Shown piece after piece: positions 419 to 19,937 of a stretch of 24,000 nt of DNA (position 1 is its first letter; each line of letters begins with the position of its first letter). Position numbers and translations under genes: made by a program. A model generated the notes under the pieces. The model searched no databases. It saw only the letters and a program-made list of their open reading frames with translations, and had not been told where the DNA came from. The stretch comes from Pseudobdellovibrionaceae bacterium (GTDB taxonomy: Bacteria; Bdellovibrionota; Bdellovibrionia; Bdellovibrionales; Bdellovibrionaceae). The DNA is taken from contig JBIKLL010000023.1 in assembly GCA_044359815.1 (NCBI GenBank), forward strand, positions 1 through 24,000, written 5' to 3'.

Positions 419-925
419 TTATTGTGCAGGTTTCACTAGGGTGAAAGATTTTTCGATCTTTTGGCCTTTTTTAGTGACGGCGGCAAAGGTGAATTCGTTG
501 TTGCCAGTTTTAAGCTCGATAAAATCTGATGTGAACTCGCTTTTGTCGTTAACAACTATGCTGGCAGAAAATCCGTTAGTCTTATTGACCAACTTAATTT
601 CTTGATTCGTATCCAATGAACAATTGCGCCCTTTAAACCGAATGTGAGTCCCCTTGGCGATGGGCATTTCGATAGGCTGATTGCAGTCGATCATTCCTTC
701 TACTGTTTTAGCCAGATTCAAAGCATTTCCCTCAACCAAGGAAACCGACGCGGGCTTTCTGTCGCCACCTAAAACAACGGCGATTTCTTCTTTTTTCTGA
801 ATAGGCTCACGAACAACTGACAGAACCGAGAAAATTCCCAGTACCGTAATCGCCGCAAAGGTGACTCCTAATTGATAAAAACTGATAGGACTTTTTGGAT
901 CCGCCATCACAATACAGATCGACAT
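419..925 (-). CDS. Hypothetical bitopic membrane protein: N-terminal TM anchor plus a beta-rich C-terminal domain of about 120 aa. Candidate non-canonical partner of the upstream ExbB/ExbD pair
   Basis: 168-aa ORF. A hydrophobic segment (ISFYQLGVTFAAITVLGIFSVLSVV) lies near the N-terminus, followed by a charged KKEE linker and a strand-like alternating pattern. It is on the same strand as and downstream of exbB-exbD, but separated from them by 258 bp. I see no TonB Pro-rich spacer and no TolA-like Ala/Lys helix. The start could be ATG 925 or ATG 907. Confidence 0.6.
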   Translation of the reverse strand: MSICIVMADPKSPISFYQLGVTFAAITVLGIFSVLSVVREPIQKKEEIAVVLGGDRKPASVSLVEGNALNLAKTVEGMIDCNQPIEMPIAKGTHIRFKGRNCSLDTNQEIKLVNKTNGFSASIVVNDKSEFTSDFIELKTGNNEFTFAAVTKKGQKIEKSFTLVKPAQ

Positions 926-1183: not shown

Positions 1184-1594
1184 CTATGGGGACTGTTTTT
1201 CAATCGAGATTGCAAATTTCTTGATCCCTGCAGACTTCACTACGTCAATAATATGGACTACAGAGCCGTGCGGGACAGTTTTATCCGCACTGATGATGGC
1301 CTGTGCATCAGGATTTTTTTCGATTTGCTCTTTGGCTTTGGCAGAAATCAAGGTGTCATCAGCTGGACTTCCGTTCAGTAAAGTCTTTCCATCCGATGTC
1401 AGCGTGACCGTCAGCTGAGTGGGTGCTGTTTGTTCGCCACTGGCAGCTTTTGGCAGATTAACTCCGATGGATGGCTTCATGATCATGGGTGCGGTCACCA
1501 TAAATATAATCAGAACAACCAAAATAATATCGACCAACGGAACCACATTGATTTCACTGATTGCTTCATCGTCGGACGAATATTTGCCAGCCAT
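1184..1594 (-). CDS. ExbD/TolR-family biopolymer transport protein
   Basis: 136 aa. It has a short cytoplasmic N-terminus, the family-typical TM (EINVVPLVDIILVVLIIFMVTAP) and then a periplasmic domain. The start lies 3 nt after the exbB-like stop. ExbD and TolR cannot be told apart from sequence alone. Confidence 0.9.
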   Translation of the reverse strand: MAGKYSSDDEAISEINVVPLVDIILVVLIIFMVTAPMIMKPSIGVNLPKAASGEQTAPTQLTVTLTSDGKTLLNGSPADDTLISAKAKEQIEKNPDAQAIISADKTVPHGSVVHIIDVVKSAGIKKFAISIEKQSP

Positions 1595-1597
1595 TTA

Positions 1598-2224
1598 TCA
1601 GCCTTTTTTCTTGGCAAAAGCCAAACACAGTTCTTTGACAGAATCTAAACTGGATAAAATACTTTTAACCTGTTTTTGAAAATAATTATAAAAAATCACC
1701 GCAGGTATTGCCACAAACAACCCAGTCGCTGTCGCCACAAGGGCCAACGAAATCCCGGCCATCACTGTCTGCTGACCAGCCTCTGCATTCATAGCCAAAT
1801 CATTAAAGGCTTTCATGATACCTAATACCGTACCTAACAATCCGATGTATGGAGCATTGGATCCCACTGTAGCCAAAAAGTTCAAAAACCTTTCCAGATC
1901 AGGCTTTTCAGTCAATGAATAGGCGTTAAAAACTTCTTCCAATCCTTTTGATCCATTGTCTCTGATGTGCTTCAAAGCATGATTGATTGCGCGGCCTTCA
2001 ACGGTATTGATGTTTTTCGAAAATTCTTGAACATCCTCAACGCTGTTGCTTTGCAAGGCTTGCCTAATTCTTTCGCGGAAATGGGCACTGTTTTTCGTTG
2101 CCGATCGCAGATAAAAAAACCGTTCCAGTATGACGCCGACTGAAATCACGCTCAATGCTATCAAAAGCCACAAAATACCCTGATCCAATATCTGTGCTAT
2201 CGCAAAAATTTTCTCTGTTAACAT
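1598..2224 (-). CDS. MotA/TolQ/ExbB-family proton-channel protein
   Basis: It carries the signature NAPYIGLLGTVLGIMKAF and three hydrophobic segments. I moved the start to ATG 2224 (MLTEKIF...). A GAGGGAG Shine-Dalgarno (CTCCCTC at 2231-2237 on the + strand) sits 5 nt upstream of that ATG. The longer track ORF (to 2275) would also collide head-on with the divergent gene. Confidence 0.9.
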   Translation of the reverse strand: MLTEKIFAIAQILDQGILWLLIALSVISVGVILERFFYLRSATKNSAHFRERIRQALQSNSVEDVQEFSKNINTVEGRAINHALKHIRDNGSKGLEEVFNAYSLTEKPDLERFLNFLATVGSNAPYIGLLGTVLGIMKAFNDLAMNAEAGQQTVMAGISLALVATATGLFVAIPAVIFYNYFQKQVKSILSSLDSVKELCLAFAKKKG

Positions 2225-2278
2225 AAATGCTCCCTCGACACTCTGATTATGGCTAGATATATTAAACACCGTCAAGCC

Positions 2279-3838
2279 ATGACCTATTTACGACTTATTT
2301 TTTTATTTTTATGTGTTGGACTTTTATCATGCGAGTTTCGCAGCAAAGATTCTAATCGTATCCTGATCATCGCTGTTGAAAAACTGGGAACAAAATTGAA
2401 TCTATGCGAACCCAGGTCCGAACAAACCAATAACGGATTTGTTGAGCTTTGTCAGAATTCAATTCGCTTTTCGCACGCATATTCACCATCGACTCAGGGT
2501 ATCCCCGCCCTGACTTCTGTCCTGACAGGTCTTTATCCTTTTGAACATCAGGTGCGACTGAACTCTGTTCAGTTTTTAAAGCCCGAATTTGACACTGTCA
2601 CAGAATTGGCTCGAGAAAAAAACATGTTCACGGCATTGATTTCGGGTGGACCACCACTGTTCAGAAAATCTGGGCTATCCCAAGGTTTCGAGATTTTTGA
2701 TGACTACCTGCCCTCGTCCATCAGAAAGCCTTTTCGTCCCATCGAGCAGTCCTTTGAAATTATAAAAAGCTGGATGCAGGAAGAACGGCATTTTTTCGGA
2801 GTTCTGTATGCTCCTGATTTACTGTACACAGAAACAGTCACTACAAATGATTTGGGTGAAATAAGAAACAGCACTTTTGATTCGCAGGTGGATGAATTAT
2901 CGGAAACACTGTTTCATTTTTTTGATTGGCTTAAAAAACATTCGCTTTGGGACCAAACCACTGTAATCTTAGTCGGTCTGAATTCAAACAATGACACCCA
3001 CCGAAGCTTTATCTCGGCAATCGAAGCTCCATTTTCAGATAAAACCCATGTGGCACTTTTTGTGAAACCCAGTTTTTACTTACAAAAGAATCAACATGTT
3101 GATCAATTAGTCTCCCTGGTGGATCTGGGGCAAACCTTGATTGAAAACCTGTCAGGGATAACCGGCACCCGTGATGATTTTGCTTTTCAGAAAAAATCAT
3201 TGACTGAAATTTGGCTTAATCCCGATTCCCATCCAAGCGAAAAACCCATAGTGATTGAAAACCTATTTGATTTCTGGCGCACAAAATTACCTGTGCAGAT
3301 TGCCCTTCGAAACAAAAATAATTTGTATTTCAGGTCTCACACGGAAGAATTTTTGTTTAATGTTTTATCAGATCCAAACGAACTGCACCCCTTATCCTTA
3401 AAAGAACCACTGATTGAAGGTATTTTGAAAGAGCGCAGAAAAGCTGTCGAGTCTATGAAGGACAGTTTGCTGAAGGTATCAATAGAGTCTTCAGCTTCTG
3501 CAAACTTGCGGATGTGTCTGCCAAAAATAAAATCTGTGCCGGTAAAACAATGGGCGGCAAAAGACTGTGACAATGTATTGTTTAGTAAATTTATGACTTG
3601 GCTTAAGCTGGAAATAGCTGGCGAAAATGACGACAACAAAGAATCCGCAAAGCGCGAATTTATCAGGTACTACACGGAATTTGTGCAGGAAAAGGAACTG
3701 TTTATTTTGGCTCTTCAAAAAGGCCGCAAATGGAATGTCAGACCTGATGGATTTATGTTTTTGGAGGATTTTGAAAAAATAAAAAACTTGAATCAGCTTT
3801 TACCTTACAAAGATAAAATCTCGAAATTACAGATTTAG
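2279..3838 (+). CDS. Lipoprotein with a sulfatase / alkaline-phosphatase-superfamily fold whose catalytic residues appear to be replaced (putative pseudo-sulfatase)
   Basis: Start taken at MTYLRLIFLFLCVGLLSC, which has an L-L-S-C lipobox. The N-terminal region is colinear with sulfatase blocks. RILIIAVEKLG matches the usual ..LILxDDLG block. IRFSHAYSPSTQGIPALTSVLTGLYPFEH matches the usual FTNAY..C/SxPxRxxLLTGxYP block. TVTELAREKNMFTALISG and GFEIFDDY also fit. The metal-binding DD is EK, and no C/S-x-P-x-R formylglycine motif is present. The C-terminal ~200 aa are unassigned. Confidence 0.6.
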   Translation: MTYLRLIFLFLCVGLLSCEFRSKDSNRILIIAVEKLGTKLNLCEPRSEQTNNGFVELCQNSIRFSHAYSPSTQGIPALTSVLTGLYPFEHQVRLNSVQFLKPEFDTVTELAREKNMFTALISGGPPLFRKSGLSQGFEIFDDYLPSSIRKPFRPIEQSFEIIKSWMQEERHFFGVLYAPDLLYTETVTTNDLGEIRNSTFDSQVDELSETLFHFFDWLKKHSLWDQTTVILVGLNSNNDTHRSFISAIEAPFSDKTHVALFVKPSFYLQKNQHVDQLVSLVDLGQTLIENLSGITGTRDDFAFQKKSLTEIWLNPDSHPSEKPIVIENLFDFWRTKLPVQIALRNKNNLYFRSHTEEFLFNVLSDPNELHPLSLKEPLIEGILKERRKAVESMKDSLLKVSIESSASANLRMCLPKIKSVPVKQWAAKDCDNVLFSKFMTWLKLEIAGENDDNKESAKREFIRYYTEFVQEKELFILALQKGRKWNVRPDGFMFLEDFEKIKNLNQLLPYKDKISKLQI

Positions 3839-4503
3839 AAACCTCTTAGTGGTATTTCAGCCAACCAAAAAGGTGATTGGTAGTCTGATTCAATCAGTGC
3901 AGATTCTAGTTGCTTAAAATCACCTTCAAAAGTTTTCAACAATTCTTGTTGATTAAAGCTGCAAGCAACTAATACCAGACTGTCCACACCCTTCAGATCA
4001 CAAGTCCCAGCAGACACAGATATTTCTGCTGAAACACCAAGGGCATTTAATGGCAGCGGCGAAGCCTCTGGCACAGCGGACTCAGATGCGCTCAACAACA
4101 TCAATCGATTACCTTGGCGCGCTGCCACCGTTAAATCTGAACAACAGGCCCAGTGCAATTGCTGATCGACTTTCTGAAAAATCGAAACCTCTACTAAATG
4201 TTTTAAATACACAGAATTGTATTCGCTCAATACGATTTCATTGGCAGATTTTAGAGAAGAATTCAGTTTTTCGTTAAATTCGGGTGCTGCCACAGGGTCC
4301 ATGCCCGAAATCTTGGTGACATCCAAATCAACTGAGATATTCAAAAAATCATCCAGCTTTGATGCCAGGCTTTCAATGCTCAGATCGCCACTCCATCTGG
4401 TAATCACAGTCAGTCGACGGCTTTTAACGTCGGCAATGACTTTCGGTCTGGGTCTGAAGGCTGTGCCTGCAAATATCCTTTGTTGTATCATCTTAAAGAC
4501 CAT
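3835..4503 (-). CDS. Hypothetical protein, last gene of the FHA operon. Possibly a degenerate PP2C/SpoIIE-like fold (fold assignment about 0.25 confidence)
   Basis: 222-aa ORF. It overlaps the upstream stop by 11 nt; the alternative ATG 4491 would leave a 1-nt gap. It is loosely colinear with PP2C blocks. LTVITRWSGDLSIESLAS sits where vvaDGMGGH..GevAS is expected. LHWACCSDLTVAARQGNRLMLLS sits where l.vanvGDSRayl.r.g.l..lT is expected. LKGVDSLVLVACSFNQQEL sits where l..gD.llLcSDGl is expected. The metal-binding Asp residues are absent. Confidence 0.6.
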   Translation of the reverse strand: MVFKMIQQRIFAGTAFRPRPKVIADVKSRRLTVITRWSGDLSIESLASKLDDFLNISVDLDVTKISGMDPVAAPEFNEKLNSSLKSANEIVLSEYNSVYLKHLVEVSIFQKVDQQLHWACCSDLTVAARQGNRLMLLSASESAVPEASPLPLNALGVSAEISVSAGTCDLKGVDSLVLVACSFNQQELLKTFEGDFKQLESALIESDYQSPFWLAEIPLRGF

Positions 4504-6415
4504 ATTTCTTTAGTTTCAGTTTTGCTTTTTTGTAATATTCTTCTTCAGGCAAACTCTTTTCCAGAATGCGCTTCCATTTGCCCTTGGCGGCTTCGACTTC
4601 ACCGACGCTTTCCTCCAAGATCCCCTCTTGGTAGTAAGCTTGCATTTGCCGTTTTAAATCACCCATCATCTGGCTCAGTTTTGTCTTTGCAACTTCGTTA
4701 TTAGGATTGATTTCCACAGAAGCTTTCATTTTCAGAATAGCTTCTTTCAGATTGCCATTTTTTAAGTAATCTTCGGCGTCTTTTTCGTACTTACGCTGTC
4801 TGGTTGACAGGTCATCCTGAATGCTAGCGATTTTTCGCTTGGCTTTTGATTTCAGATTATCTGGATCAGGCAATCCCGAGTTCACTACTACATCATAGGC
4901 CTTGATCGCAGCCAAATACTGAGTGTCGATAAACAAAGTTTCGGCCTTGTGAAACAGATTTCGCTGCCTTTGCACTCGGTCTTCATAGGCTTGCTGCTTT
5001 TCTTCTTTGATAGCCTGTTCAGCCATTATTCTTTCGACCTGTTCGCGAGCCTCTAAAATTGCAGGGTGCTCTGGATTTAGTACCAATACCTGATCCAAGC
5101 ATTTTTCCAAATCACTCATTGTAGTGGTCGGTCTGATTTGTGTTTTACAGATGTTCACTTGGTTTTGGATTTTGATTTCAGATTCACGTTTTTCTTCTTC
5201 CCTAGCCAGTGCTTTTTGCTGTTCGATCTGGGTTTGCAATGCTACCTCAGCTAACTGTTCCAGATTTTTTGATTCATAGTAATACGGAACCAATTGATGG
5301 ATTTTTGAAACTTCTTGTTTGGCTAATTGGTATTTGCCCTGTCTGAACAATTGATCAGCCAAACTGTAGGTATCATGCACATACCGCTGCTGCTGAGCCG
5401 TCAACCGATCAAACGCAGACTGCGGTCTGCCGCCTGATTCGCTGGCCATGTCAGATTTTTGCGATGAACCCGAATCTTCCAGAACATACATCAATGTCAA
5501 TCCTATCACCACCACACCAATAAACAGCACGTACCATTGATTGTCAGGTTGCTTGCGTTTTTTACGACGACTGGCTTGGTACTGTGACGGGTAATTCATC
5601 CCTGGCTGATAGGCGACTGGTGGCGGTGGTTCGTCTAAAATCGAAGCATCATGAAAGGACGACTCAACATCTTCGACCGCCATCACAGATTTCATTTTGT
5701 CTTTAAAATCTGGATCTCTGATTTCAAAAATTACCTTGTAATTCACGACCTCAATTGTGTCACCACTGGCCAGTCGATTCCATTGCATAGGAGTCAGGTT
5801 TTCACGATTCAAAACGGTGCCGTTTGAACTGTTTAAGTCCCTAACCATATAATTTCCGTCTTCGTATTTGATTTCAAAATGCTGACGGCTGAATTCAGAA
5901 ACATCAATAAATATAGTCGAACGAGTGTCGCGACCGGCAACCCAGTTTTGCCCCTCAAGCCTGAAGACCTTAAATATCTGACCCATTTCATTGGCAATTT
6001 TGACCAGAATTTCCTGTTTTTGCGAAACCACAACAGTGCGCTCGTTAATGGATTCGTTAAACGAGGATTCAATGCTTTTTTTGCGTCTGCTGGATTCAGT
6101 CTTTACTGGATTCTGAGCTTGCTCTTCATCAACGAACATAAATCTGTAAGGTGGCACATCAAACAGATGACCATGTTCCAGAACAATTTTGCTGTTTTTA
6201 ACACCGTTAACATACAGCTCTTTAAATTTAGACAAACAATCGACTGTCCATAAACCTTTTTCGTTAAAGATTTTCAGATGTTTTCGACTGATTCCAACTT
6301 CGGCCTCAATGGTGATGTCACAATTATGTCCACGGCCAACGATGTAGGATTTGCTTTGCTTCAGCTTGACCTCAGAAATCATGACATCATTTTTATATAT
6401 TCTCAGTAATGACAT
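4493..6415 (-). CDS. Membrane protein with tandem FHA domains: FHA-FHA, Pro-rich/basic linker, TM, then a long TPR/coiled-coil C-terminal region
   Basis: FHA1 is YIVGRGHNCDITIEAEVGISRKHLKI...LYVNG. FHA2 is WVAGRDTRSTIFIDVSEFSRQHFEIKYEDGNYMVRDLNSSNGTVLN. These are followed by PPPPVAY and SRRKKRKQ, then the TM WYVLFIGVVVIGLTLMYVL. The remaining ~320 aa are helical and TPR-like (for example AIKAYDVVV and DYLKNGNLKEAILKMKASVEINPNN). Start set at ATG 6415 (MSLLRIY), which forms a TGATG overlap with the upstream stop. Confidence 0.85.
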   Translation of the reverse strand: MSLLRIYKNDVMISEVKLKQSKSYIVGRGHNCDITIEAEVGISRKHLKIFNEKGLWTVDCLSKFKELYVNGVKNSKIVLEHGHLFDVPPYRFMFVDEEQAQNPVKTESSRRKKSIESSFNESINERTVVVSQKQEILVKIANEMGQIFKVFRLEGQNWVAGRDTRSTIFIDVSEFSRQHFEIKYEDGNYMVRDLNSSNGTVLNRENLTPMQWNRLASGDTIEVVNYKVIFEIRDPDFKDKMKSVMAVEDVESSFHDASILDEPPPPVAYQPGMNYPSQYQASRRKKRKQPDNQWYVLFIGVVVIGLTLMYVLEDSGSSQKSDMASESGGRPQSAFDRLTAQQQRYVHDTYSLADQLFRQGKYQLAKQEVSKIHQLVPYYYESKNLEQLAEVALQTQIEQQKALAREEEKRESEIKIQNQVNICKTQIRPTTTMSDLEKCLDQVLVLNPEHPAILEAREQVERIMAEQAIKEEKQQAYEDRVQRQRNLFHKAETLFIDTQYLAAIKAYDVVVNSGLPDPDNLKSKAKRKIASIQDDLSTRQRKYEKDAEDYLKNGNLKEAILKMKASVEINPNNEVAKTKLSQMMGDLKRQMQAYYQEGILEESVGEVEAAKGKWKRILEKSLPEEEYYKKAKLKLKKYGL

Positions 6416-7356
6416 CAGTGCCCCCCTTCCAGGCGCACAGAACACTCATCAAAGAGCTGCTTGGCTTCCTTAAATATGGGGTCATTGATGTCTTTAAGCA
6501 TAATCATGACTTGCGAAAACGATGACTTACACAATCTAAAATTGTTTTTTCCCAGATACCTTTTCCCCAGAATCATGTTTTGCTGAATCTGTCCGTCGAA
6601 CTTTCTCTTTGCCAGAGCCCAATATTTTTTGGACAGATCATGATTCGGAAAGAAACTCAGCGCTGCTTGAAATGATTGAATCGATCTGGCGTATTGTCCC
6701 TGTCGATAGTCCCGGAAACCCTTCAGATAATGCTGTTGCGCCAATTGAAACTGCAGTGTGTCCTGTCCAGTTTGTATGCGCTTTTGTTCAATATCTTTTA
6801 TTGTAGATATCGACTGCTCTATAGATTTAGTGACATCAAACTGTGATCTGACAGGAACTGGTTCAGATTTTTTTGTTTCAGGACTAAAGTACATATACGC
6901 AATAAGTCCTATTAATAGAGCGATTCCGTACAATCTGATTCTGCCCCAATCTGATCCAACGCCTTTTGCAAAAACCTTTGGTTTTTTAGCCAGGGACAGT
7001 TGTTCCAAAAACTCGGGATTAAATATTTTGTATCTGACTGTTAAATGAGTGTCGCCCAAGGTCAGTTTTACAGGCTGATTAACACTGACCTCTTTAATCA
7101 TATTGTCGTTCAAAAATAATACGTTTTTGTCAGAAACATTTCTGATTCTGATTCCAGATGGCGTCAGCTTGATTTCACAATGATGGCGACTGGCCTTAAT
7201 GTCCTCTAATATCACATCATTGTCGGGCTCGCGTCCCAGACTGATTTTCTGTTTAGTAAAGGTATAAATCTTGCCGACGTTTTTACCTGATTCCAGCACC
7301 ACTTCGATTACGAACTGTGGGGATCCATCTGGACGAATCATAGGGGCTGCACTCAT
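6415..7356 (-). CDS. Membrane protein FHA-TM-TPR-like
   Basis: Start set at ATG 7356 (MSAAPMIRPDG). An AAGGAGG SD lies 6 nt upstream, and the start forms an ATGA overlap with the upstream stop. The FHA domain is ISLGREPDNDVILEDIKASRHHCEIKL...LFLNDN. The TM is IRLYGIALLIGLIAYMYF. The C-terminal region is TPR-like (HYLKGFRDYRQGQYARSIQSFQAALSFFPNH). Confidence 0.85.
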   Translation of the reverse strand: MSAAPMIRPDGSPQFVIEVVLESGKNVGKIYTFTKQKISLGREPDNDVILEDIKASRHHCEIKLTPSGIRIRNVSDKNVLFLNDNMIKEVSVNQPVKLTLGDTHLTVRYKIFNPEFLEQLSLAKKPKVFAKGVGSDWGRIRLYGIALLIGLIAYMYFSPETKKSEPVPVRSQFDVTKSIEQSISTIKDIEQKRIQTGQDTLQFQLAQQHYLKGFRDYRQGQYARSIQSFQAALSFFPNHDLSKKYWALAKRKFDGQIQQNMILGKRYLGKNNFRLCKSSFSQVMIMLKDINDPIFKEAKQLFDECSVRLEGGH

Positions 7357-8948
7357 GCTGCGCCTCCTTGTGATTCTGTCAAAGGTGCGAATGAAATCAG
7401 ATAAAATTCTGGCTGACCATTTGATTGACCCAAAGCCTGACATTGAATCGACAACATCATGCTGGAAATTTCAATCTGATCGTTGACTGTAACCTGCGGC
7501 TGCGCCCCAGATTTTTTAATTAATTCTTGCAGATTTTTTTGTAAGGCCTGATCAGGTATGGCGACAATATTTTGATTGAATAATTGCATTGCCGAATAGC
7601 CAGTCAAAGCTTCAAATTGCGGATTGATTTCCAAAATCATACCCATTTTGTTAATCAACAATCCCGGAAAGCCCATAATCTTGATAATGTTTCTGATTTC
7701 GTTTTCATTGATACCACTGTGCTCTAACAATTGCGGCCCACCTGACACCCCACCACGCGACACCAGACTGTTAATATTTACCAAGACATCGTGTAATGCC
7801 TGTGACCTGATTGAAGTCTGCACGTGATCAACCTTGTTGCTCAAAACCTCGTCCAAGTTTTTCTTAAGCTGCACCAATGGGTATTCGACGACTTTTGCAA
7901 GCAGATAAAACATCACAAATCCCAACAGCAATGCGATAGCCAACATCTGGATAAACATGCTGAAAGCTTTCCCATCACTAAAGGTCAAGCTCTTCGGATT
8001 ATAGATAATGACCACTGTGGCTTTAGCTACGTTTTGTTGCAGCTCTGGATCAAACACTACAATTGGAGCACTGGCTGCGATCTGGTCATTTGACAGAACC
8101 ACAGAAGTTTCCTTGATGTATCCACGGATTTGTTTCACAAACCCTGCTTGTTTAGGCGAAGCTCCAACTCGTTCACCTGGGGCAATGATGGTGCCGTCTT
8201 TAGAAATGATGTAAACATCATCAATGCCTTCTTCGCGTAAAATCAAATCAGTGGTGTAGCTGGAAATATCATTGCTTCTGATTATTTTTTCATTGGATTG
8301 TGCCAAAGCTCTGGCCAGGGTCAATGCACGCCGTTTGCTTTCAATCTGCACACTTTCTTGTGTGATGCTCTTCATCGGAAAAATCGCCAACAAAGTAATC
8401 GCAAAAATAAATATTAGTGCAAACCCAACAACCACAGCTTTCACATCAAACGAATGCGTCAGCTGAAACAATCCCGGATAAACCGCGCGTTCCAAATAGT
8501 TTTCGATTTGTTCATTTAGTGATTTTGGCAGTGCCATTGATCGATTGACTGAAGAATCTGCAGACTGCTGACCCATCGCCGGTGTCATTGGCTGCGATGG
8601 CATCTGAGCCGCAGGCATCTGTCGGGTCTGTCGGGCCAATGCCCGTTGATTGACCTGATGATCCCTTTCAACCAGTTCCATCATAACGTCATGAGCAGCA
8701 ATCTTGTCGCCCTTTTTCAGGATCGTATTGCGAACACGAACTCCGTTTACAAAGGTTCCGTTACTGGATTCCAGATCCTTTAACAAAAATTTCTCGTCAC
8801 GATAAATGATTTCAAAATGTTCCTTGGAAACTTGTGGGTTATCAATCTGAATATCGCAACTCTCAGCCCTGCCGATTTTGTTGTGTCCCTTTTTCAGGGA
8901 ATAAGTTCTGCCTGTTTGGCTTCCAGATAGGATCTTAATTTTCCACAT
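7353..8948 (-). CDS. Sensor-like FHA protein: FHA, Q/M/P-rich linker, TM, Cache-like extracytoplasmic domain, TM, HAMP-like segment, PAS-like domain. No recognisable enzymatic output domain
   Basis: The FHA domain is NKIGRAESCDIQIDNPQVSKEHFEIIYRDEKFLLKDLESSNGTFVNG. TM1 is AVVVGFALIFIFAITLLAIFPM. A ~140-aa domain between the TMs has a Cache-like core (DDVYIISKDGTIIAP). TM2 is FSMFIQMLAIALLLGFVMFYLLA. The HAMP-like segment is YPLVQLKKNLDEVL...LVNINSLVSR. The C-terminal region is PAS-like (GLLINKMGMILEINPQFEALTGYSAMQL). Start taken at ATG 8948 (MWKIKIL) with GGGGA upstream; TTG 8963 is an alternative. Confidence 0.8.
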   Translation of the reverse strand: MWKIKILSGSQTGRTYSLKKGHNKIGRAESCDIQIDNPQVSKEHFEIIYRDEKFLLKDLESSNGTFVNGVRVRNTILKKGDKIAAHDVMMELVERDHQVNQRALARQTRQMPAAQMPSQPMTPAMGQQSADSSVNRSMALPKSLNEQIENYLERAVYPGLFQLTHSFDVKAVVVGFALIFIFAITLLAIFPMKSITQESVQIESKRRALTLARALAQSNEKIIRSNDISSYTTDLILREEGIDDVYIISKDGTIIAPGERVGASPKQAGFVKQIRGYIKETSVVLSNDQIAASAPIVVFDPELQQNVAKATVVIIYNPKSLTFSDGKAFSMFIQMLAIALLLGFVMFYLLAKVVEYPLVQLKKNLDEVLSNKVDHVQTSIRSQALHDVLVNINSLVSRGGVSGGPQLLEHSGINENEIRNIIKIMGFPGLLINKMGMILEINPQFEALTGYSAMQLFNQNIVAIPDQALQKNLQELIKKSGAQPQVTVNDQIEISSMMLSIQCQALGQSNGQPEFYLISFAPLTESQGGAA

Positions 8949-9282
8949 ACAACTGATCCCCAACTGAAAGACTAATTAAATTTGGATTTCCAGAACTGAC
9001 TTCGATAACTGAATTGGCTCCCCACACCGGCCAGACCAATCCAAAAGGTTTGATCTGTTTTTTGATTGCTTTGATTTTTAAATTTTTATCCAAAAACACA
9101 CAGTCGATGTCAAATTTCATAAAGCAAGTGTGTATGCTGTTGCAGCTGTGAATCCATAACCCCTGCTGATCAGTCAATGAACGACGACCCATCAGACCGA
9201 TAGCACGGTCCCAAAATTTATCAGCGATGATCAAATCGCTTAATAAAATCTGTTTAGAGTTGTTGTTCTTTAAGACCGCCAC
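8935..9282 (-). CDS. DUF192-family protein
   Basis: 115 aa. The family-like core is RAIGLMGRRSL....GLWIHSCNSIHTCFMKFDIDCVFLDKNLKIKAI. It uses a GTG start that overlaps the TAG stop of the upstream gene by 1 nt. No signal peptide is seen. Confidence 0.7.
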   Translation of the reverse strand: MAVLKNNNSKQILLSDLIIADKFWDRAIGLMGRRSLTDQQGLWIHSCNSIHTCFMKFDIDCVFLDKNLKIKAIKKQIKPFGLVWPVWGANSVIEVSSGNPNLISLSVGDQLYVEN

Positions 9283-10232
9283 TAATTGCCCCCGTACATA
9301 AACTGGATGATGACCGGACCAAACACGATGATAAAAACTGCTGGTAAAATAAATAATATCATTGGAACCAACAGCGCTTGCGAAGCTCTGGCACCGGCTT
9401 TTTCTGCGCGCACAAATCGCTCAAGCCTGATTTGTTCGCTTTGCTCTTTCAGAACTTTCGAAATGCTGGCACCCGTTGCGTCGGCATCAATCAACACAGC
9501 CACGAAGCTGGTGATTTCTGGAATGTCTAATCGTTTTGACATCCCCCTTAAAGCATCAGCACGGCTGGAACCCAGCTTGATGTCCTTCAGGATAATGCCT
9601 AGCTCTTCAGCCAAAACACTGTCCTGAGCCTTGTCAGCAATTTTTTGAATCGCCGAAATAAAATCCAAACCAGCTTCTGTCGACAACGCCAACAGGTCTG
9701 CAAAAAATGGCAGATCAGCACGCACTGAAATTTCGCGAGAATTTTTTTCTGAGCGAGCGTAGAAAGTCGGCAGATAATATCCAATCGGCATTAACAAAAT
9801 CACAATCGGCCATGAAAATCCCAAATCCATCGTAAAGTTCGCAACAGCAATCAGCGCTGGCGCCATAATCCCCCAGAAAAACTGGAAGCCAATAAATTCA
9901 TCAACGTTCAGTTCCTTGGAAAGCCCCGAAGTTAAAATCAAGTATTCGATTTTCTTTCTGTACTCGGGGTCTTTGACTTTCAATGCGTACTTGAGTGTGA
10001 ACTGATGCACCAGGGGTCTGGAAAAATTAATAATCGCAGATTTGGATTTTACGGGTTCGTTGCCACTAGCCCATGAAAGCAATTCTTTTTGTGCGTTGGT
10101 ATTAGTCATGAATGATGAAACTAAAAAATACACAGACAATGCTGCCATAAATAATCCTGCAAAAAGTAACAGGTCCGCTTGAATCACTTTTCTGGTTCCT
10201 TTCACGCAAAGTTTGTGATGAACTCGGTTCAT
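9282..10232 (-). CDS. Type II secretion system F-family protein (TadC/TadB-like Flp-pilus platform protein)
   Basis: The C-terminal T2SS-F domain is clear: LGSSRADALRGMSKRLDIPEITSFVAVLIDADATGASISKVLKEQSEQIRLERFVRAEKAGARASQALLVPMILFILPAVFIIVFGPVI. An N-terminal TM and central TMs are also present. The N-terminus is uncertain. ATG 10256 and ATG 10232 both overlap the divergent maf start, and GTG 10205 is another candidate. Confidence 0.85.
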   Translation of the reverse strand: MNRVHHKLCVKGTRKVIQADLLLFAGLFMAALSVYFLVSSFMTNTNAQKELLSWASGNEPVKSKSAIINFSRPLVHQFTLKYALKVKDPEYRKKIEYLILTSGLSKELNVDEFIGFQFFWGIMAPALIAVANFTMDLGFSWPIVILLMPIGYYLPTFYARSEKNSREISVRADLPFFADLLALSTEAGLDFISAIQKIADKAQDSVLAEELGIILKDIKLGSSRADALRGMSKRLDIPEITSFVAVLIDADATGASISKVLKEQSEQIRLERFVRAEKAGARASQALLVPMILFILPAVFIIVFGPVIIQFMYGGN

Positions 10233-11484
10233 GTACAAACTTGTGCTGGCATCCAACTCACCCCGAAGACAAAAACTTCTTCAGGAAGCAGGATTTCTCT
10301 TTAACTCATTCCCCGTTAACTTATCGGAAAAACTTGAGAATAACCTGAAGCCAGAGGAACAAATTTTATCCATAGCCCGACAAAAGGCCAGGTGGGCCGC
10401 ACAGACTTATAAACCATTGGATTCTGAAGATTTTCTGATACTGACGGCCGATACGATGGTTGTGTCAGAGGGAATCCCCTTGGGAAAGCCTGCTGATAAC
10501 CCAGACGCATGTCGAATGCTTTTACAACTTTCCGGAAATTCTCACCGGGTCATCACTGCGGTTACCCTCTGCAGAAGCCCCTATCAAGAGGTCCTGTCCT
10601 TCCATGTAACCACTGAAGTTTTCTTTAAAAAACTGAATGATACACAGATCCAAGATTATCTGGCTACGGGTCAGCATTTGGACAAGGCCGGAGCCTACGG
10701 GATCCAGAGTGCTGCTGGGAAATTTGTTGAAAAAATAATTGGTGATTTTAATAACGTCGTTGGCTTTCCGATTTTGGAATTTGAAAAACAATTGGCCGAT
10801 AAAAATATTATTCTGCAAAAACAAAAACCCACCGTTGAACCCTTGTCGGTAGTGACTGAGAAAATAAAATCAATCAGTGAAAAAACAAAAATCGTTGCTG
10901 TTTCAAAACTGCAAAGCACTGATGCGATTCGTGGATTGTATCTGCAAGGTCAGCTGGATTTTGCTGAAAATTATGTGCAAGAAACTGTTGAAAAACTGTC
11001 TGAGCTTTCCGATTTACCAATCAGATGGCATTTCATCGGGCACCTGCAAAAAAATAAAGTTAAAAATGTTGTGGGAAATTTTGAATTTATTCATTCTGTG
11101 GACACCGTTGAATTGTGCAAAAAAATCGATCAAATCGCTGGCGAAAAGGGCCTTTACCAAAAAATATTTTTACAAATCAACGTGGCGGGCGATCCTGGCA
11201 AATCAGGTTTTAATCCTGACAATATCTTGACCGATCTGAATCAGATTTTTAGTCTGAAAAACATTAGGGTCGTGGGTTTGATGACCATGCCGCCTTTGAC
11301 AAATTCTGCTCAGCAAAACAAAAAATATTTTATGGATCTCAGAAAAATTCGCGATCAGATCGCCGAAAACCATCCTGAATGTCAGGAACTGTCGATGGGA
11401 ACCACTCAGGATTTTTTGACCGCGGCTCAGTGTGGTGCAACCTTTGTGCGACTGGGTACGATTTTATTTGGCCAACGCCCGTAA
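10231..11484 (+). CDS. maf-yggS: Fusion protein: Maf nucleoside-triphosphate pyrophosphatase (N-terminal ~190 aa) plus a YggS-family PLP-binding protein (C-terminal ~200 aa)
   Basis: One uninterrupted 417-aa ORF. Maf motifs present: LVLASNSPRRQKLL, LTADTMVV, LGKP, LDKAGAYGIQS, NVVGFP. YggS motifs present: IVAVSK (PLP lysine), WHFIGHLQKNK, VGLMTMPP, LSMGTTQDF, FVRLGTILFG. Confidence 0.85.
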   Translation: MYKLVLASNSPRRQKLLQEAGFLFNSFPVNLSEKLENNLKPEEQILSIARQKARWAAQTYKPLDSEDFLILTADTMVVSEGIPLGKPADNPDACRMLLQLSGNSHRVITAVTLCRSPYQEVLSFHVTTEVFFKKLNDTQIQDYLATGQHLDKAGAYGIQSAAGKFVEKIIGDFNNVVGFPILEFEKQLADKNIILQKQKPTVEPLSVVTEKIKSISEKTKIVAVSKLQSTDAIRGLYLQGQLDFAENYVQETVEKLSELSDLPIRWHFIGHLQKNKVKNVVGNFEFIHSVDTVELCKKIDQIAGEKGLYQKIFLQINVAGDPGKSGFNPDNILTDLNQIFSLKNIRVVGLMTMPPLTNSAQQNKKYFMDLRKIRDQIAENHPECQELSMGTTQDFLTAAQCGATFVRLGTILFGQRP

Positions 11485-14256: not shown

Positions 14257-14280
14257 TTTCTTTATCCATAATTGAGTTTT

Positions 14281-15435
14281 ATGAAAATGTCAGTGATTCT
14301 TACTTTTTTTATCAGTATTCCCAGCATGGCTTATTTCCAGTCACAGGACTTCAAGCAAAACCAATGGCAACTGTGGTCAGGGGTTAATCATTTTAGTGCT
14401 ACCAGTAATTTTACCCGTGAAGGCGGCCAGTTTGACCGATTGCCCAGCGGTAATCAGTATCAGCTGACTCAGATAGATTTTGGTGTGAACTATGGTTTTT
14501 CTAAATGGTCTCGCATCCGATTTATTGGCCAATCGGCCTCTGCAATGTCCGAGGATTCCGTAGCGCAAAGAAACAATTCGGGATTTACCTATGTTGGCGC
14601 TGCCATGGATTTTAAAATGTTAGATTACAATGGATTTCAGATTGTTCCCTCTGTGACCTATCTGGCGCCGGTGACAAATATTTCTGCAGCATCTGATGAC
14701 GTTTTTATTTCAGAGGGCGTCAGTGAATTGCAACTGAACACAATGATGTTGTGGGACGCGGGAACTTTTGAGCCTTTTGGTTCACTGGGATTTAATTACC
14801 GCGATGGAGGCAGAGCTTCGCTGCTGACCTATGCAGCGGGCGCCGAAGTTGATTTTGCAAAATTCAAAGCCGGTGCCGGCATTCAAGGTTACAACACTGT
14901 CATTGCCGATGAGTTTTCTAAAACACCTTCAGTGCGCGAGGCCTCTGCGTCTAAAAACGGCGGTGCGCTCAGATTTTACACCGTCGACCCCGCACTGCTG
15001 GAAAGCCAATACTGGATTCGGTTTGGTACAAAATCAAATTGGAGTTTGCAATTAGGTGGCGGCTTTTCAGTAACTGGAGCCGCGACTGCGGGTGGATGGA
15101 ACGCCTTTGGTTTGATTTCGTTTAGCATTGACAGTAAAAAAATCGAATCAATTAACAAAACAGAAGTCGAAAAATTTGAAGAGATAACTGAAGATGGTGT
15201 GGATCAGAATGCGTTTCAACATCCCGCAACACCGACCACAACTACCATTCCACCAAACACCAGTGCTCCTATGCCAGACGACGCAAATATTGTTGAAAAC
15301 CGTGGCAGATCTCAGTTAAAAGAAAAACGAGAAAAAGCTCCACCTTCGGATAATTCAAATGCCAGCCAATTGCAGGATGCCGAAATGCATATGGAACTCA
15401 GACTCAAAAAGAAAACTAAAAAACGTCAAAAATAG
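14281..15435 (+). CDS. Putative outer-membrane beta-barrel protein with a disordered, Lys-rich C-terminal extension of about 100 aa
   Basis: The signal peptide is MKMSVILTFFISIPSMA/YFQ. Amphipathic strands with aromatic girdle residues alternate up to ...GWNAFGLISFSI. A low-complexity tail follows (PATPTTTTIPPNTSAP ... LRLKKKTKKRQK). Start taken at ATG 14281 rather than the track's TTG 14272. Confidence 0.6.
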   Translation: MKMSVILTFFISIPSMAYFQSQDFKQNQWQLWSGVNHFSATSNFTREGGQFDRLPSGNQYQLTQIDFGVNYGFSKWSRIRFIGQSASAMSEDSVAQRNNSGFTYVGAAMDFKMLDYNGFQIVPSVTYLAPVTNISAASDDVFISEGVSELQLNTMMLWDAGTFEPFGSLGFNYRDGGRASLLTYAAGAEVDFAKFKAGAGIQGYNTVIADEFSKTPSVREASASKNGGALRFYTVDPALLESQYWIRFGTKSNWSLQLGGGFSVTGAATAGGWNAFGLISFSIDSKKIESINKTEVEKFEEITEDGVDQNAFQHPATPTTTTIPPNTSAPMPDDANIVENRGRSQLKEKREKAPPSDNSNASQLQDAEMHMELRLKKKTKKRQK

Positions 15436-15450
15436 ATTGCGGGATTTTAA

Positions 15451-18126
15451 ATGAGCCTACCTGATCGATACAACCCCTCTGAAGTCGAAACTAAAACCTA
15501 TCAATGGTGGGAAAGCTCTGGCTTTTTTAAAGCCGCAGAAAAATCCAACAAACCTCCTTATTGCATTATTTTGCCTCCACCTAACGTGACTGGATTTTTA
15601 CACATGGGACATGCATTGGATCACAGCATTCAAGATCTGTTGGTCAGATACAAACGCATGACGGGATTTAATGTTTTGTGGTTACCAGGCACTGATCACG
15701 CAGGTATCGCCACACAGGTTGTTGTTGAAAAAGAACTTAAAAAAGCTGGCAGTTCCCGATCATCATTGGGCCGCGAAAAATTTGTGGAAAAGGTTTGGGA
15801 ATGGAAACACCAATATGGCGATCGAATTTATTCGCAGATGCGCAAGCTTGGCGACAGTTGCGATTGGGACCGCGCTGTATTTACCTTGGACGAAAATGTT
15901 TCTAAAGCAGTTCGCAAAGTTTTTGTTTCGTTGTATCAAAAAAATCTGATTTACCGCGGTTTGCGTTTGGTCAATTGGAGCGGTCCATTGGAATCCGCAA
16001 TTTCTGACCTGGAAGTCGACTACAAAGAGGTTAAGGGTTCTTTGTGGCATATCAAATACCCAATCCAAGGCACCAAAGAATTTTTAATTGTTGCAACCAC
16101 CAGACCTGAAACTTTGTTAGGTGATTCGGCTGTTTGTGTCCACCCTGATGACGAACGCTACAAAAAATTTATCGGTAAAAATGTTTTACTGCCATTGCTA
16201 AACAGACCTATCCCGATAATTGCTGACGCTTATGTTGATCAAAGTTTTGGCTCAGGCGTTGTCAAAATCACTCCGGCCCATGATTTTAATGATTACAAAA
16301 TTGGTAAAACACATAATTTGCCATTTATAAATATTCTGAACAAAAAATGCGAACTGAACGAAAACGCAGGTCCTTACAAAGGTCTCAAGGTCACCGAGGC
16401 TCGCAAAAAAGTTTTGGAAGACCTGACGCAATTGGGATTGTTGGACAAAGAAGAACCTCACAAACTGAACGTGGGTCATTGTTCCAGAACAGGTGCAGTT
16501 GTTGAACCTTATTTATCCGATCAATGGTTTGTAAAAACTGAGGCCATAGCAAAACCAGCCAAACACGCAGTTGAAAACGGCACAATCAAATTTGAACCCG
16601 AATCATGGACCAAGGTTTATTTGCATTGGATGAGTATTATCGATGATTGGTGTGTCAGCCGTCAGTTGTGGTGGGGTCACAGGATTCCTGCATGGCATTG
16701 CATGGACTGTAAAAACATTATCGTTAGCGAAACTGATCCTGCTGATTGTACCAAATGCAAAAGCAAAAAACTGTCACAGGACGAAGACGTGCTAGACACT
16801 TGGTTCAGTTCGGCACTGTGGCCCTTTAGCACTATGGGTTGGCCGCAAGAAACTGAACTGCAAAAAACTTTTTACCCAACCAATACATTGGTAACAGGTC
16901 ACGATATAATATTTTTCTGGGTCGCCAGAATGATTATGATGGGTATCGAATTTAAAAAAGACGTTCCCTTCAGGCATGTTTATGTTCATGGCTTGATCCG
17001 CGACAGTCAGGGACGCAAAATGTCCAAGAGCTTGGGTAATTCTGTAGACCCTGTCGAAATGATCGATAAATACGGCGCCGATGCCCTGAGGTTTTCAATT
17101 TTGTCACAGTTGCATTCAGGCCGTGATATGAAATTCAGCGAACAGCGTTTGGAAAGTTCGCGCAATTTTATGAATAAAATCTGGAACGCGACTAGGTTTT
17201 GTCTGAATTATCTGAAAGATTTTAAACCACCAGCTCAAGGTGTGAATACAGCCCTGGATAAATCGGCATCGACTACCTATGATCAGTGGATTGTTTTTCA
17301 GATGAAGCTTTTGCAAGAATCCACCGAAAGCTTAATGGCGCAAAACAGATTTTCAGATGCAGCCAACGCAATCTACAGTTTTGTTTGGTACGAGTTCTGT
17401 GATTGGTACATCGAATTTATCAAACCCATCGTTAACGGTCCTGATGGCGCACAAAAACCCAATGCCCTGTTAAATATGGCGCAGATTTTAAACCGCATCA
17501 TGAGACTGCTGCACCCGTTTACGCCTTTTGTGACCGAAGAAATTTATCAAAAGCTTCCGATTAAAGGTGCCGCTTGTATCATTGATCAGTATCCAACAAT
17601 CAAAACGGACAAACAGTATTTGGATTCTGGGTCAGAACAGGCTTCTGATGAAATCGAACTGATCAAAGCGGTTATTGTGGCCGTCAGAAACATTCGTGGC
17701 GAAAACAAAATCAAAGCCGGGTCCCAAGTTTCGTGCAAAATCAAACCCAGCAATTCTTTTGTGGAAAATGTAATGAACAAACACAAAGTCGTGATCACTC
17801 AGCTGTCACGAATTGATGATTTAATTATCGGCGATACGGGTAATCTGTCTAAATGTGCTGTCACCAATGTCACACACAAGGACAATCAAGCCTTGGTTGT
17901 GATTCCCTTGGCCGGAATCGTTGATCTGGATGAGGAAATAAAGCGCATTCAGAAAAATATCGAAAAACTGGATAAAGATATTAGTTCTACTGAATCCAGA
18001 CTGAAAAACGAAAACTTTGTCAAAAATGCTGCCGAAGAAGTGATTGAAGCCGACCGTCTGTTGCTGTCACAATCAAAGGTCAAGGTTAAATCACTAAAGG
18101 AATCACTTGAGCGATTGCAGTCTTAA
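15451..18126 (+). CDS. valS: Valine--tRNA ligase
   Basis: 891 aa. The HIGH motif (PPPNVTGFLHMGHAL), the KMSKS motif (KMSKSLGN), the editing-domain region and the C-terminal coiled coil typical of ValRS are all present. Confidence 0.97.
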   Translation: MSLPDRYNPSEVETKTYQWWESSGFFKAAEKSNKPPYCIILPPPNVTGFLHMGHALDHSIQDLLVRYKRMTGFNVLWLPGTDHAGIATQVVVEKELKKAGSSRSSLGREKFVEKVWEWKHQYGDRIYSQMRKLGDSCDWDRAVFTLDENVSKAVRKVFVSLYQKNLIYRGLRLVNWSGPLESAISDLEVDYKEVKGSLWHIKYPIQGTKEFLIVATTRPETLLGDSAVCVHPDDERYKKFIGKNVLLPLLNRPIPIIADAYVDQSFGSGVVKITPAHDFNDYKIGKTHNLPFINILNKKCELNENAGPYKGLKVTEARKKVLEDLTQLGLLDKEEPHKLNVGHCSRTGAVVEPYLSDQWFVKTEAIAKPAKHAVENGTIKFEPESWTKVYLHWMSIIDDWCVSRQLWWGHRIPAWHCMDCKNIIVSETDPADCTKCKSKKLSQDEDVLDTWFSSALWPFSTMGWPQETELQKTFYPTNTLVTGHDIIFFWVARMIMMGIEFKKDVPFRHVYVHGLIRDSQGRKMSKSLGNSVDPVEMIDKYGADALRFSILSQLHSGRDMKFSEQRLESSRNFMNKIWNATRFCLNYLKDFKPPAQGVNTALDKSASTTYDQWIVFQMKLLQESTESLMAQNRFSDAANAIYSFVWYEFCDWYIEFIKPIVNGPDGAQKPNALLNMAQILNRIMRLLHPFTPFVTEEIYQKLPIKGAACIIDQYPTIKTDKQYLDSGSEQASDEIELIKAVIVAVRNIRGENKIKAGSQVSCKIKPSNSFVENVMNKHKVVITQLSRIDDLIIGDTGNLSKCAVTNVTHKDNQALVVIPLAGIVDLDEEIKRIQKNIEKLDKDISSTESRLKNENFVKNAAEEVIEADRLLLSQSKVKVKSLKESLERLQS

Positions 18127-19261: not shown

Positions 19262-19285
19262 ATCCCTTATCCTTAAGGACTTGCG

Positions 19286-19362
19286 GAATCTGCAATCTGC
19301 ATCGAAAGTTGTTTTGGGTTTTGCTGTCACGAATCTGCAGTCTGCATCGAAAGTTGTTTTGG
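19286..19362. repeat. Two 32-bp direct repeats (19286-19317 and 19331-19362, 31/32 identical) separated by 13 bp
   Basis: Read directly. Copy 1 is GAATCTGCAATCTGCATCGAAAGTTGTTTTGG and copy 2 is GAATCTGCAGTCTGCATCGAAAGTTGTTTTGG. Each contains an internal TCTGCA doublet. Copy 2 ends 5 nt upstream of the ATG at 19368. Confidence 0.9.
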
Positions 19363-19367
19363 CCATT

Positions 19368-19937
19368 ATGTTTTCGATTTGTTTAATTTCTGTGGGCGCT
19401 GGTGCCTGCGAAGACGGATCCAATGATTCTGATCATACAGATCATTCACACAATGCCTTGTCAGCCGGTGTGGCGTTTTTTAGCCAACATTTGGCGATTA
19501 AAAACGCCGGGGTCAGCGAACATTATCTGGCCAGTATGACAGGATATGAAATCGGATACGAATACCAGTTTTCAGACCTGAATTTAAAATTAGGAATATT
19601 GCATGGCCAAGGCAGTCTGGTGACCCGCTTCAGTTCATTGAGCTATTCGACCTTTGATTCAAAATGGCAAATCACTGCTATGCAATTTGCATTTAAATTG
19701 TGGCAAAACCAAAAAAACAAAATATATTTTTCAGTCACCCCTGGTGTTCAAAAAATTTCTTTAAGCCAACCACCCTTAAGCGAAGAGGATTTGGATCTGT
19801 CGAATCAACCTTTTCAACGTGTGGGATTAATTTACCGAGCTGAAATATCTGAATATCATTTTTTCGACTTCGAAATCGCCAACGTCAGCCCCTTTAACAA
19901 AGCCCTCTGGAAACTCCAGATGGGCCTGATGTTTTAG
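19368..19937 (+). CDS. Small putative outer-membrane beta-barrel lipoprotein with a His/Asp-rich N-terminal segment
   Basis: Start taken at ATG 19368. [14 protein letters not shown] has a lipobox-like A-G-A-C, with the Cys encoded at 19407-19409. The mature N-terminus is [16 protein letters not shown]. The ~165-aa body is strand-rich and ends LQMGLMF, with a terminal Phe beta-signal. The track start at 19215 would put about 50 non-signal residues ahead of the signal peptide. Confidence 0.6.

Follow-up and report, generated by a model that had tools for sequence, protein, structure and literature searches.

A block of six consecutive genes, located on the minus strand of a stretch of DNA from a Pseudobdellovibrionaceae bacterium (contig JBIKLL010000023.1; the window, below, is this whole stretch of 24,000 nucleotides (nt)), encodes a pilus platform protein, a DUF192 protein, three membrane proteins with FHA domains and a soluble protein predicted to have the fold of PP2C phosphatases. 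By sequence comparison, this block is the tadC operon of a Bdellovibrio-like predator and the orthologue of Bd0470-Bd0475 of Bdellovibrio bacteriovorus. Its genes, named g1 to g6 in the order of transcription, and their immediate surroundings are as follows.

9282-10187, minus strand: g1, tadC (kilH type), 301 amino acids (aa), one T2SSF domain and three hydrophobic segments; counterpart of Bd0470
8935-9282, minus strand: g2, DUF192 protein, 115 aa; counterpart of Bd0471
7353-8948, minus strand: g3, sensor-like FHA protein, 531 aa; counterpart of Bd0472
6415-7356, minus strand: g4, bitopic FHA protein, 313 aa; counterpart of Bd0473
4493-6415, minus strand: g5, bitopic protein with two FHA domains, 640 aa; counterpart of Bd0474
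3835-4503, minus strand: g6, soluble predicted pseudophosphatase of PP2C fold, 222 aa (218 aa from the ATG at 4491); counterpart of Bd0475
10188-10230, between divergent genes: gap of 43 base pairs (bp) separating tadC from maf
2249-3838, plus strand: neighbouring sulfatase-like lipoprotein gene (Pfam)
1598-2275, minus strand: neighbouring exbB (Pfam)
1184-1594, minus strand: neighbouring exbD (Pfam), at the far end of the flanking group 1184-3838

Six minus-strand open reading frames (ORFs) between 3835 and 10256 had been reported in a preliminary description made from the letters of the sequence, and the sequence bears them out together with every junction given there. All five junctions of the block are read as overlapping stop and start codons: TAGTG between g1 and g2, where one base is common to stop and start; a 14-nt overlap, ATGTGGAAAATTAA, between g2 and g3; AAGGAGG followed by ATGA between g3 and g4; TGATG between g4 and g5; and ATGGTCTTTAAGATG between g5 and g6, an 11-nt overlap or, with the other ATG, a 1-nt gap. 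With these overlapping codons the translational coupling proposed earlier is probable, and the operon status of Bd0470-Bd0475 in B. bacteriovorus is published (PMC6561027; PMC12034629). A consensus scan gave no promoter- or terminator-like sites within the block above the level of shuffled sequence.

One correction concerns the start of the TadC-like gene at its divergent junction with maf. The longest ORF reaches 10256, whereas gene callers and all homologues (of about 300 aa) begin at the GTG at 10187, and the 100 %-identical database entry is 301 aa long; the start is most likely at 10187 on these comparisons. This leaves the 43-bp gap to maf, which begins at 10231, and the tadC promoter must lie in this gap or inside maf. 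No promoter-like site above chance was found in the gap, which is similarly short, 20-28 bp, in four related loci (L004, L006, L007 and L012; the prefix L marks the numbered loci used for comparison). At the opposite end of the block the convergent sulfatase-like gene and g6 share 4 nt (3835-3838), which leaves no room for a terminator after g6.

The domain content proposed earlier, namely a T2SS-F/TadC protein, a DUF192 protein and four FHA domains on three membrane proteins, was confirmed by Pfam and hydropathy. The first protein has a single T2SSF domain (5e-19, residues 185-312) and three hydrophobic segments by hydropathy, and the closest database proteins are labelled 'tight adherence protein C' or 'pilus assembly protein TadC'. 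It is shown by these data to be TadC, the inner-membrane platform subunit of a Tad (Kil-like) pilus machine. The second protein matches DUF192 (8e-18) and has neither a signal peptide nor a transmembrane (TM) segment. Its gene directly follows tadC in every related locus, including the most distant ones, and its motifs are conserved among orthologues; neither a literature search nor a sequence search of the PDB gave a useful lead to the function of DUF192.

The third protein matches the FHA family (1e-21) and, weakly, PAS, and has two TM helices by hydropathy. In its AlphaFold2 model (predicted local distance difference test score, pLDDT, 84.7) the cytoplasmic FHA domain (1-94) is followed by a disordered linker, the first TM helix, a small periplasmic alpha/beta domain of PAS/Cache-like appearance (220-316), the second TM helix, HAMP-like helices and a cytoplasmic PAS domain (415-522), with which the protein ends. 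Over its full length the model is structurally closest to the sensor kinase WalK, and the sequence has a weak match to the VicK family; the FHA part matches the structures of FhaA, GarA and the B. bacteriovorus protein DgcB. Among PDB entries the best match of this FHA domain is FhaA of Mycobacterium tuberculosis, and the closest solved FHA domains (FhaA, GarA, OdhI and DgcB) are phosphothreonine (pThr) binders. HisKA, HATPase_c or a DHp core were not found in g3, which stops after the PAS domain. As modelled, proteins of the g3/Bd0472 type are the input module of a WalK-like sensor kinase, with the kinase core absent and an FHA domain placed in front.

The two other FHA proteins are of simpler build. 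In g4 (FHA 2e-11, Yop-YscD_cpl 1.5e-13, weak TPR_2) a cytoplasmic FHA domain is followed by a low-complexity linker, one TM helix and a periplasmic TPR-like region. In g5 (FHA 3e-26 in two stretches, and TPR_2) two cytoplasmic FHA domains precede one TM helix (residues 294-312) and a long periplasmic TPR/coiled region. The Pfam family Yop-YscD_cpl is matched by all three FHA proteins. The GR and SxxH residues are kept in all four FHA domains: G-R, S-x-x-H and N-G are invariant in the g3 domain among 63 homologues, and GR and SxxH are invariant in eight orthologues of g4 and of g5. The N-G-T motif is kept in the FHA domain of g3 and in the second one of g5.

The remaining parts of a pilus or signalling machine are not encoded nearby. 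Among the window ORFs of 80 aa or more, none has a kinase, ATPase or secretin domain by Pfam; a prepilin motif of the Flp type is absent from all frames of the window, and RodA, PBP, PknA/B or any other Hanks kinase were likewise not found in it, so that the earlier statement that kinase, ATPase, pilin and secretin are missing holds within these 24 kb. Nor are tadB, the tadA ATPase gene, a secretin gene or flp adjacent to tadC in the window, as they are in a canonical Tad/Flp locus. In B. bacteriovorus, TadB, the TadZA ATPase, the RcpA secretin and the Flp pilins are encoded at other loci (bioRxiv 10.64898/2026.07.08.737194).

The assignment to Bd0470-Bd0475 comes from a locus (L012, CP168969.1) reached through a g3 homologue that bears the name of B. 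bacteriovorus, in which the corresponding block encodes a T2SSF protein of 302 aa, a DUF192 protein of 115 aa, FHA proteins of 557 and 386 aa, a double-FHA protein of 674 aa and a protein of 228 aa with no Pfam match. Upstream of it are genes for DivIVA, ProC, YggS, a hypothetical protein, a polysaccharide deacetylase and Maf; downstream are a sulfatase-like gene, exbB and exbD. The products of g1 to g6 are 66, 58, 35, 40, 35 and 25 % identical to their positional counterparts, respectively, with pairwise BLASTP E-values from 1e-139 to 9e-13, and the match of g5 to the 674-aa counterpart is full-length. The published lengths of Bd0473, Bd0474 and Bd0475 (386, 674 and 228 aa; PMC12034629) are those found in this genome, and the deacetylase gene occupies the position expected for Bd0468. 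The block is regarded as the orthologue of Bd0470-Bd0475 because of the same gene order, the positional identities, the published lengths and the position of Bd0468.

The statement that this combination of genes is not a described system is refuted by this orthology, since the locus has been treated in three publications (PMC6561027, PMC12034629 and bioRxiv 10.64898/2026.07.08.737194). A transposon mutant in the first gene (BD0470::tn) lost prey attachment, killing and rounding, and one in the fifth (BD0474::tn) kept attachment and lost killing and rounding; both were complemented (Duncan 2019, PMC6561027), and axenic growth of the Bd0470 and Bd0474 mutants is possible (PMC6561027). Bd0473 and Bd0475 were placed in one operon with Bd0470, Bd0471, Bd0472 and Bd0474; Bd0474 was described as having two cytoplasmic FHA domains and an extracytoplasmic TPR domain, and its binding to the TPR protein Bd0075 was seen in a bacterial two-hybrid assay; AlphaFold-Multimer predicts a complex of Bd0473 with Bd0475 (interface predicted template modelling score 0.60; PMC12034629). 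In a preprint of July 2026 a separate 'tadC locus' was named and its FHA, TPR and PAS neighbours were drawn; tadC could not be deleted, from which its authors infer essentiality, a focus of TadC-mCherry was seen at the invasive pole, and the tad genes were expressed in early predation (10.64898/2026.07.08.737194). The words phosphatase, PP2C, kinase and Tad are absent from PMC12034629, to which our term search was applied, and the published accounts of the operon (PMC6561027, PMC12034629 and the bioRxiv preprint) do not name Bd0475 as PP2C-like.

Relatives of the block were gathered by a genome scan with g3, context look-ups for the g6 family, a metagenome scan with g3 and hidden Markov models (HMMs) built from eight orthologues. 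The genome scan returned two loci, from an Oligoflexia and a Bdellovibrio metagenome-assembled genome, with the same six genes and the same flanks, and context look-ups of distant members of the g6 family added four further loci with the block; of two other loci looked up in this way, L003 is a contig of 1.2 kb and L008 lacks the block. The metagenome scan with the g3 alignment yielded 80 loci, mostly generic FHA genes, with full-length relatives only in L013-L017, L020-L022 and L028; together with the HMM searches it contributed three further loci of the closer tier with the full block. In total, all six genes of the block occur together in the window and in 11 loci of the closer tier, and the gene for the inactive PP2C is found in every closer-tier locus examined. 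In a distant tier, where TadC is 40-45 % and g3 21-26 % identical, the order TadC-DUF192-FHA-FHA-2xFHA is kept and the flanks differ: L028 has genes for a metallophosphoesterase and an amino-acid kinase upstream and a convergent aldehyde dehydrogenase gene downstream, and L020 has genes for methylmalonyl-CoA mutase and a GH3 enzyme upstream. On these comparisons, the five-gene core is an evolutionary unit, not recognised before, that persists where the flanks differ.

The sixth protein has no Pfam or NCBIfam match and no TM helix. A word-indexed search for its homologues returned the query alone, and an exhaustive HMMER search was used instead, giving a family of 95 representatives of about 220 aa, nearly all within about 190-250 aa. 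A profile of 70 members matches the cyanobacterial PP2C tPphA (E=4e-6), hhalign of the family against PP2C gives 95.6-96.2 % probability, and the Pfam family SpoIIE is weakly touched by six members. The AlphaFold2 model of g6 (pLDDT 90.4) was compared with the PDB by Foldseek, and the best 50 matches are all PP2C (E to 1.5e-9, template modelling score about 0.55), with PppA, a regulator of the type VI secretion system (T6SS), tPphA, PstP and Stp1 among them. The weakest sequence matches of the family (E about 7e-4) include an ORF at L008 5567-6259 in an unrelated context, beside genes for a TPR protein, a spermine synthase and a Class_IIIsignal protein and with no tadC block; the tail of the match list is probably not orthologous.

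For the mapping of catalytic residues, hhalign was run with PstP, PrpC and tPphA sequences and repeated with a PP2C encoded in L022 (see below). Among 70 family members the Asp of the DGxGG motif is replaced by Thr in 61, and the next-but-one residue, Met, by Trp in all 70. The Asp of the GDS motif (third-metal site) is variable, that of SDG is replaced by Arg, Ser or His, and the terminal DN corresponds to FW (63/70 and 70/70, respectively), an equivalence derived from strand position only. The former active-site face (T35, W37, E105, F212 and W213) is highly conserved. The preliminary description, in which the protein was called PP2C-like and devoid of the catalytic Asp residues, was right about the fold and the loss of Asp, but the loss is not total, the copy in the window retaining one, D123, at the third-metal site. 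From the profile, the residue counts and the model, the g6/Bd0475 family is predicted to be a PP2C pseudophosphatase, which is a new annotation.

One distant locus, L022, has as its sixth gene (5622-6362) a canonical PP2C of 246 aa (Pfam PP2C_2, 50 bits against a cut-off of 24) with intact NED, VADGMGG, LTDG and SDNAT motifs and with GNS in place of GDS at the third-metal site. This protein is homologous to the g6 family (hhalign, 96 % probability). About 1.7 kb downstream of the same block, in the region 8115-9754, two Flp-like prepilins are encoded (…GQSATEYILIV… and …GQTATEYILIL…), and the Tad set there also comprises a 176-aa Peptidase_A24 protein (TadV), one more Flp-like ORF and one TadE-like ORF. 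For B. bacteriovorus, the lack of a dedicated TadV has been reported. Since flp and tadV adjoin the block in L022, there is one lineage in which the tadC module is physically linked to pilin genes. From this single locus, the simplest interpretation is that the phosphatase was ancestrally active and degenerated in the Bdellovibrio lineage.

The architecture and the orthology fit the earlier proposal of an FHA-based, envelope-spanning module on a pilus platform protein. We consider it likely that the block encodes an accessory FHA/TPR scaffold and sensor which couples pThr signalling to the Tad predation pilus, the kinase being encoded elsewhere. In this scheme the five co-translated partners would form a scaffold and sensor around the TadC platform, the three inner-membrane proteins presenting their FHA domains to the cytoplasm and their TPR or PAS-like domains to the periplasm. 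The orthologue of g5, Bd0474, may touch a periplasmic TPR network through Bd0075, and g3/Bd0472 would correspond to the input half of a sensor of the WalK type in which an FHA domain replaces the kinase. Upon prey contact a Ser/Thr kinase encoded elsewhere, for which Bd3148, proposed for DgcB, is an example, might phosphorylate its targets; the FHA proteins would read the pThr marks and license the step after attachment, i.e. invasion and prey rounding. In this way, events in the periplasm and outer membrane would be coupled to the Tad platform on its cytoplasmic side. The g6 protein, putatively descended from an operon-encoded PP2C that lost its activity, is probably an adaptor that binds g4/Bd0473 and not an enzyme. 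FHA proteins are viewed in reviews as a likely link between prey contact and machine control, and in B. bacteriovorus a pThr-FHA switch in DgcB governs invasion, with Bd3148 as the candidate kinase (PMC6733907).

A more specific version, which we offer tentatively and consider rather doubtful, is a pThr checkpoint on the Tad platform gated by the pseudophosphatase. The remodelled, invariant site of g6 might bind an FHA protein or shield a phosphosite, and together with g3 it might latch the FHA scaffolds to the platform and time the passage from attachment to invasion. If true, this would be a mode of control of a pilus machine undescribed for any type IV filament system.

Several points weigh against a pThr-reading scaffold and sensor. 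For these proteins neither the present data nor the literature provides a kinase, a phosphorylated target or a direct contact with TadC, TadB or TadA. The analysis covers a window of 24 kb, and the longest public contig that carries it has 33 kb. The sixth gene is absent in at least one distant locus (L028) and so is not indispensable to the core, and the conservation of the flanks in the closer tier could reflect general synteny, not function. Finally, the canonical N-G-T loop is absent from the FHA domain of g4 and the first one of g5, so that some FHA domains may bind without phosphate.

The absence of this loop would also suit the main rival, a phosphorylation-independent scaffold resembling SctD (YscD/PrgH) of the type III secretion system (T3SS), in which the FHA domains, without input from a kinase, dock the Tad ATPase and platform or build a ring for them, and the inactive PP2C is structural. 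The matches of all three FHA proteins to Yop-YscD_cpl point the same way, as do the PrgH-type match of the FHA protein MXAN_4649 encoded beside kilH (PMC8460266) and an operon with no kinase and an inactive phosphatase. On the other hand, the phosphate-contacting residues G-R and S-x-x-H stay unchanged in each of the four domains even between deeply diverged relatives, the nearest solved FHA domains all bind pThr, and the apparently intact PP2C in the operon of L022 implies phosphorylated partners. With the SctD model TIGR02500 the scores are 32.7 and 13.2 bits (cut-off 86), and on the periplasmic side the proteins have TPR- or PAS-like regions in place of ring-building motifs. We regard such a scaffold as unlikely. 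The FHA proteins might also be an independent signalling system merely co-transcribed with tadC and serving another output of the attack phase, such as c-di-GMP via DgcB, gliding or envelope remodelling. The BD0474::tn mutant, which attaches without killing, is unlike BD0470::tn, which does not attach (PMC6561027), Bd0075, the partner known so far, does not belong to the Tad proteins (PMC12034629), and the same organism has FHA signalling through DgcB (PMC6733907). However, the genes are coupled to tadC by overlapping codons, the core order survives down to 40 % TadC identity among unrelated flanks, the block of L022 adjoins flp and tadV, and kilH of Myxococcus xanthus likewise has FHA and FHA-TPR neighbours (PMC8460266), all of which makes a system separate from the pilus very improbable.

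A module for division or morphogenesis similar to the actinobacterial fhaA-fhaB-pstP, with maf, yggS, proC and divIVA as partners, had been named as an alternative in the preliminary description and found no support. The FHA-FHA-PP2C-like order, the location beside maf-yggS, proC and divIVA, which the window shares with all closer relatives, and FhaA as the PDB entry that best matches the FHA domain of g3 speak for it. Yet maf/yggS, proC and divIVA are transcribed divergently from the block, whose first gene encodes a pilus platform protein; the searches that find them in the closer tier find none of them in L020 and L028, which keep the block and in which the annotated upstream genes are unrelated. 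RodA, PBP and Hanks kinases are those not found in the window, the actinobacterial FhaB family model gives 54.8 bits against a cut-off of 125, and the published phenotypes are in predation, with Bd0470 and Bd0474 mutants that grow axenically (PMC6561027). This explanation is hardly tenable and was rejected on the predation phenotypes and on the distant loci, where the block is kept and maf, proC and divIVA were undetected nearby.

As for the surroundings, the trio of a sulfatase-like gene, exbB and exbD follows the block in 12/12 closer-tier loci that reach that far (L001, L002, L004-L007 and L010-L015). In the distant tier L028 is the sole contig that extends past the called 3' end of the block (g5), and it has the aldehyde dehydrogenase gene there, not the trio. 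Directly after exbB-exbD the window contains an ORF of 168 aa (419-925, minus strand) with no Pfam match and an N-terminal hydrophobic segment, and in L010, too, exbD is followed by an ORF of this length. Judging by its position, the window ORF may encode an anchor resembling TonB or TolA. On the other side, maf and yggS (the latter pyridoxal phosphate-binding, Ala_racemase_N) form one ORF of 417 aa (10231-11484, plus strand) in the window and in its metagenome contig L009; L001, L006, L007 and L012 have them as separate genes, and in L005 Maf is fused to an amino-acid kinase domain. Four sizeable ORFs of the window have no Pfam match (14272-15435, 18107-19261 and 19215-19937 on the plus strand, and 21823-22560 on the minus strand). 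The one of 387 aa between genes for a major facilitator superfamily (MFS) transporter and valS has counterparts in L001 and L013 (33-37 % identity) and, at the same position, in L012 (382 aa).

FHA proteins around kilH and tadC are the usual candidates for the conversion of prey contact into the firing of the Tad/Kil machine of predatory bacteria. The locus described here is real but known, and the window does not reveal a new system. What is new is that the Bd0475 family appears to be an inactive PP2C in the Bdellovibrio lineage and an apparently intact one in a distant lineage, beside flp and tadV; that the third member seems to be the input module of a sensor kinase without the kinase; and that a five-gene core is kept across differing flanks. 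These annotations are incremental and testable, being open to mutagenesis and binding experiments in B. bacteriovorus.

Among known systems, the T6SS pathway of Pseudomonas aeruginosa (PpkA, the PP2C PppA and Fha1) likewise combines FHA and PP2C-fold proteins with a trans-envelope machine, and an analogy with its phosphorylation has been proposed for Kil by Seef et al. (PMC8460266). It differs in that the window operon is kinase-less, its PP2C is inactive, its machine is a Tad pilus, and three membrane-anchored FHA proteins stand in the place of one soluble protein; a kinase and an active PP2C accompanying the FHA proteins were not found, whereas the pThr-binding residues are present in the sequence. 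The sensor kinases WalK and VicK share with g3 the succession of TM helix, extracytoplasmic PAS-like domain, TM helix, HAMP-like helices and cytoplasmic PAS domain, but g3 is without the DHp and ATPase domains and has an N-terminal FHA domain that the kinases lack. The FHA-GGDEF protein DgcB of B. bacteriovorus has FHA of the same fold, used as a pThr switch that licenses invasion, and its kinase is encoded elsewhere (PMC6733907); it is, however, soluble with an enzymatic c-di-GMP output, whereas the FHA proteins of the window have only periplasmic TPR or sensor domains.

The link with Kil had been made in the preliminary description, in which FHA proteins were said to occur in the Kil loci of Myxococcus and Kil-like loci in Bdellovibrionales, and it is confirmed by the literature. 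Bd0470 is the reciprocal-best-hit orthologue of KilH, the TadC homologue of M. xanthus (Seef 2021, PMC8460266); MXAN_4649 (FHA), for which the PrgH-type match is listed, and MXAN_4648 (FHA and TPR) are directly beside kilH, FHA proteins are over-represented in kil clusters, and Kil-like systems occur in Bdellovibrionales and Bradymonadales (PMC8460266). Kil cluster 2 (MXAN_4648-4661) resembles the window in having a TadC-type gene beside FHA and FHA-TPR genes and a role in prey killing, the FHA proteins being compared by published annotation only. It differs in that kilH is beside kilG (tadB), kilB and pilin genes, the Kil ATPase carries an FHA domain of its own, and DUF192 and PP2C-like genes are not listed.

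The closest system remains the tadC locus of B. bacteriovorus. The window is from a different, uncultured member of the group with about 42 % guanine plus cytosine, its maf is fused to yggS, and the gene of the peptidoglycan deacetylase Bd0468 is not inserted. The order of the six genes and the overlaps at their junctions are common to both loci, as are maf, divergent and upstream, and the sulfatase-like gene, exbB and exbD downstream.

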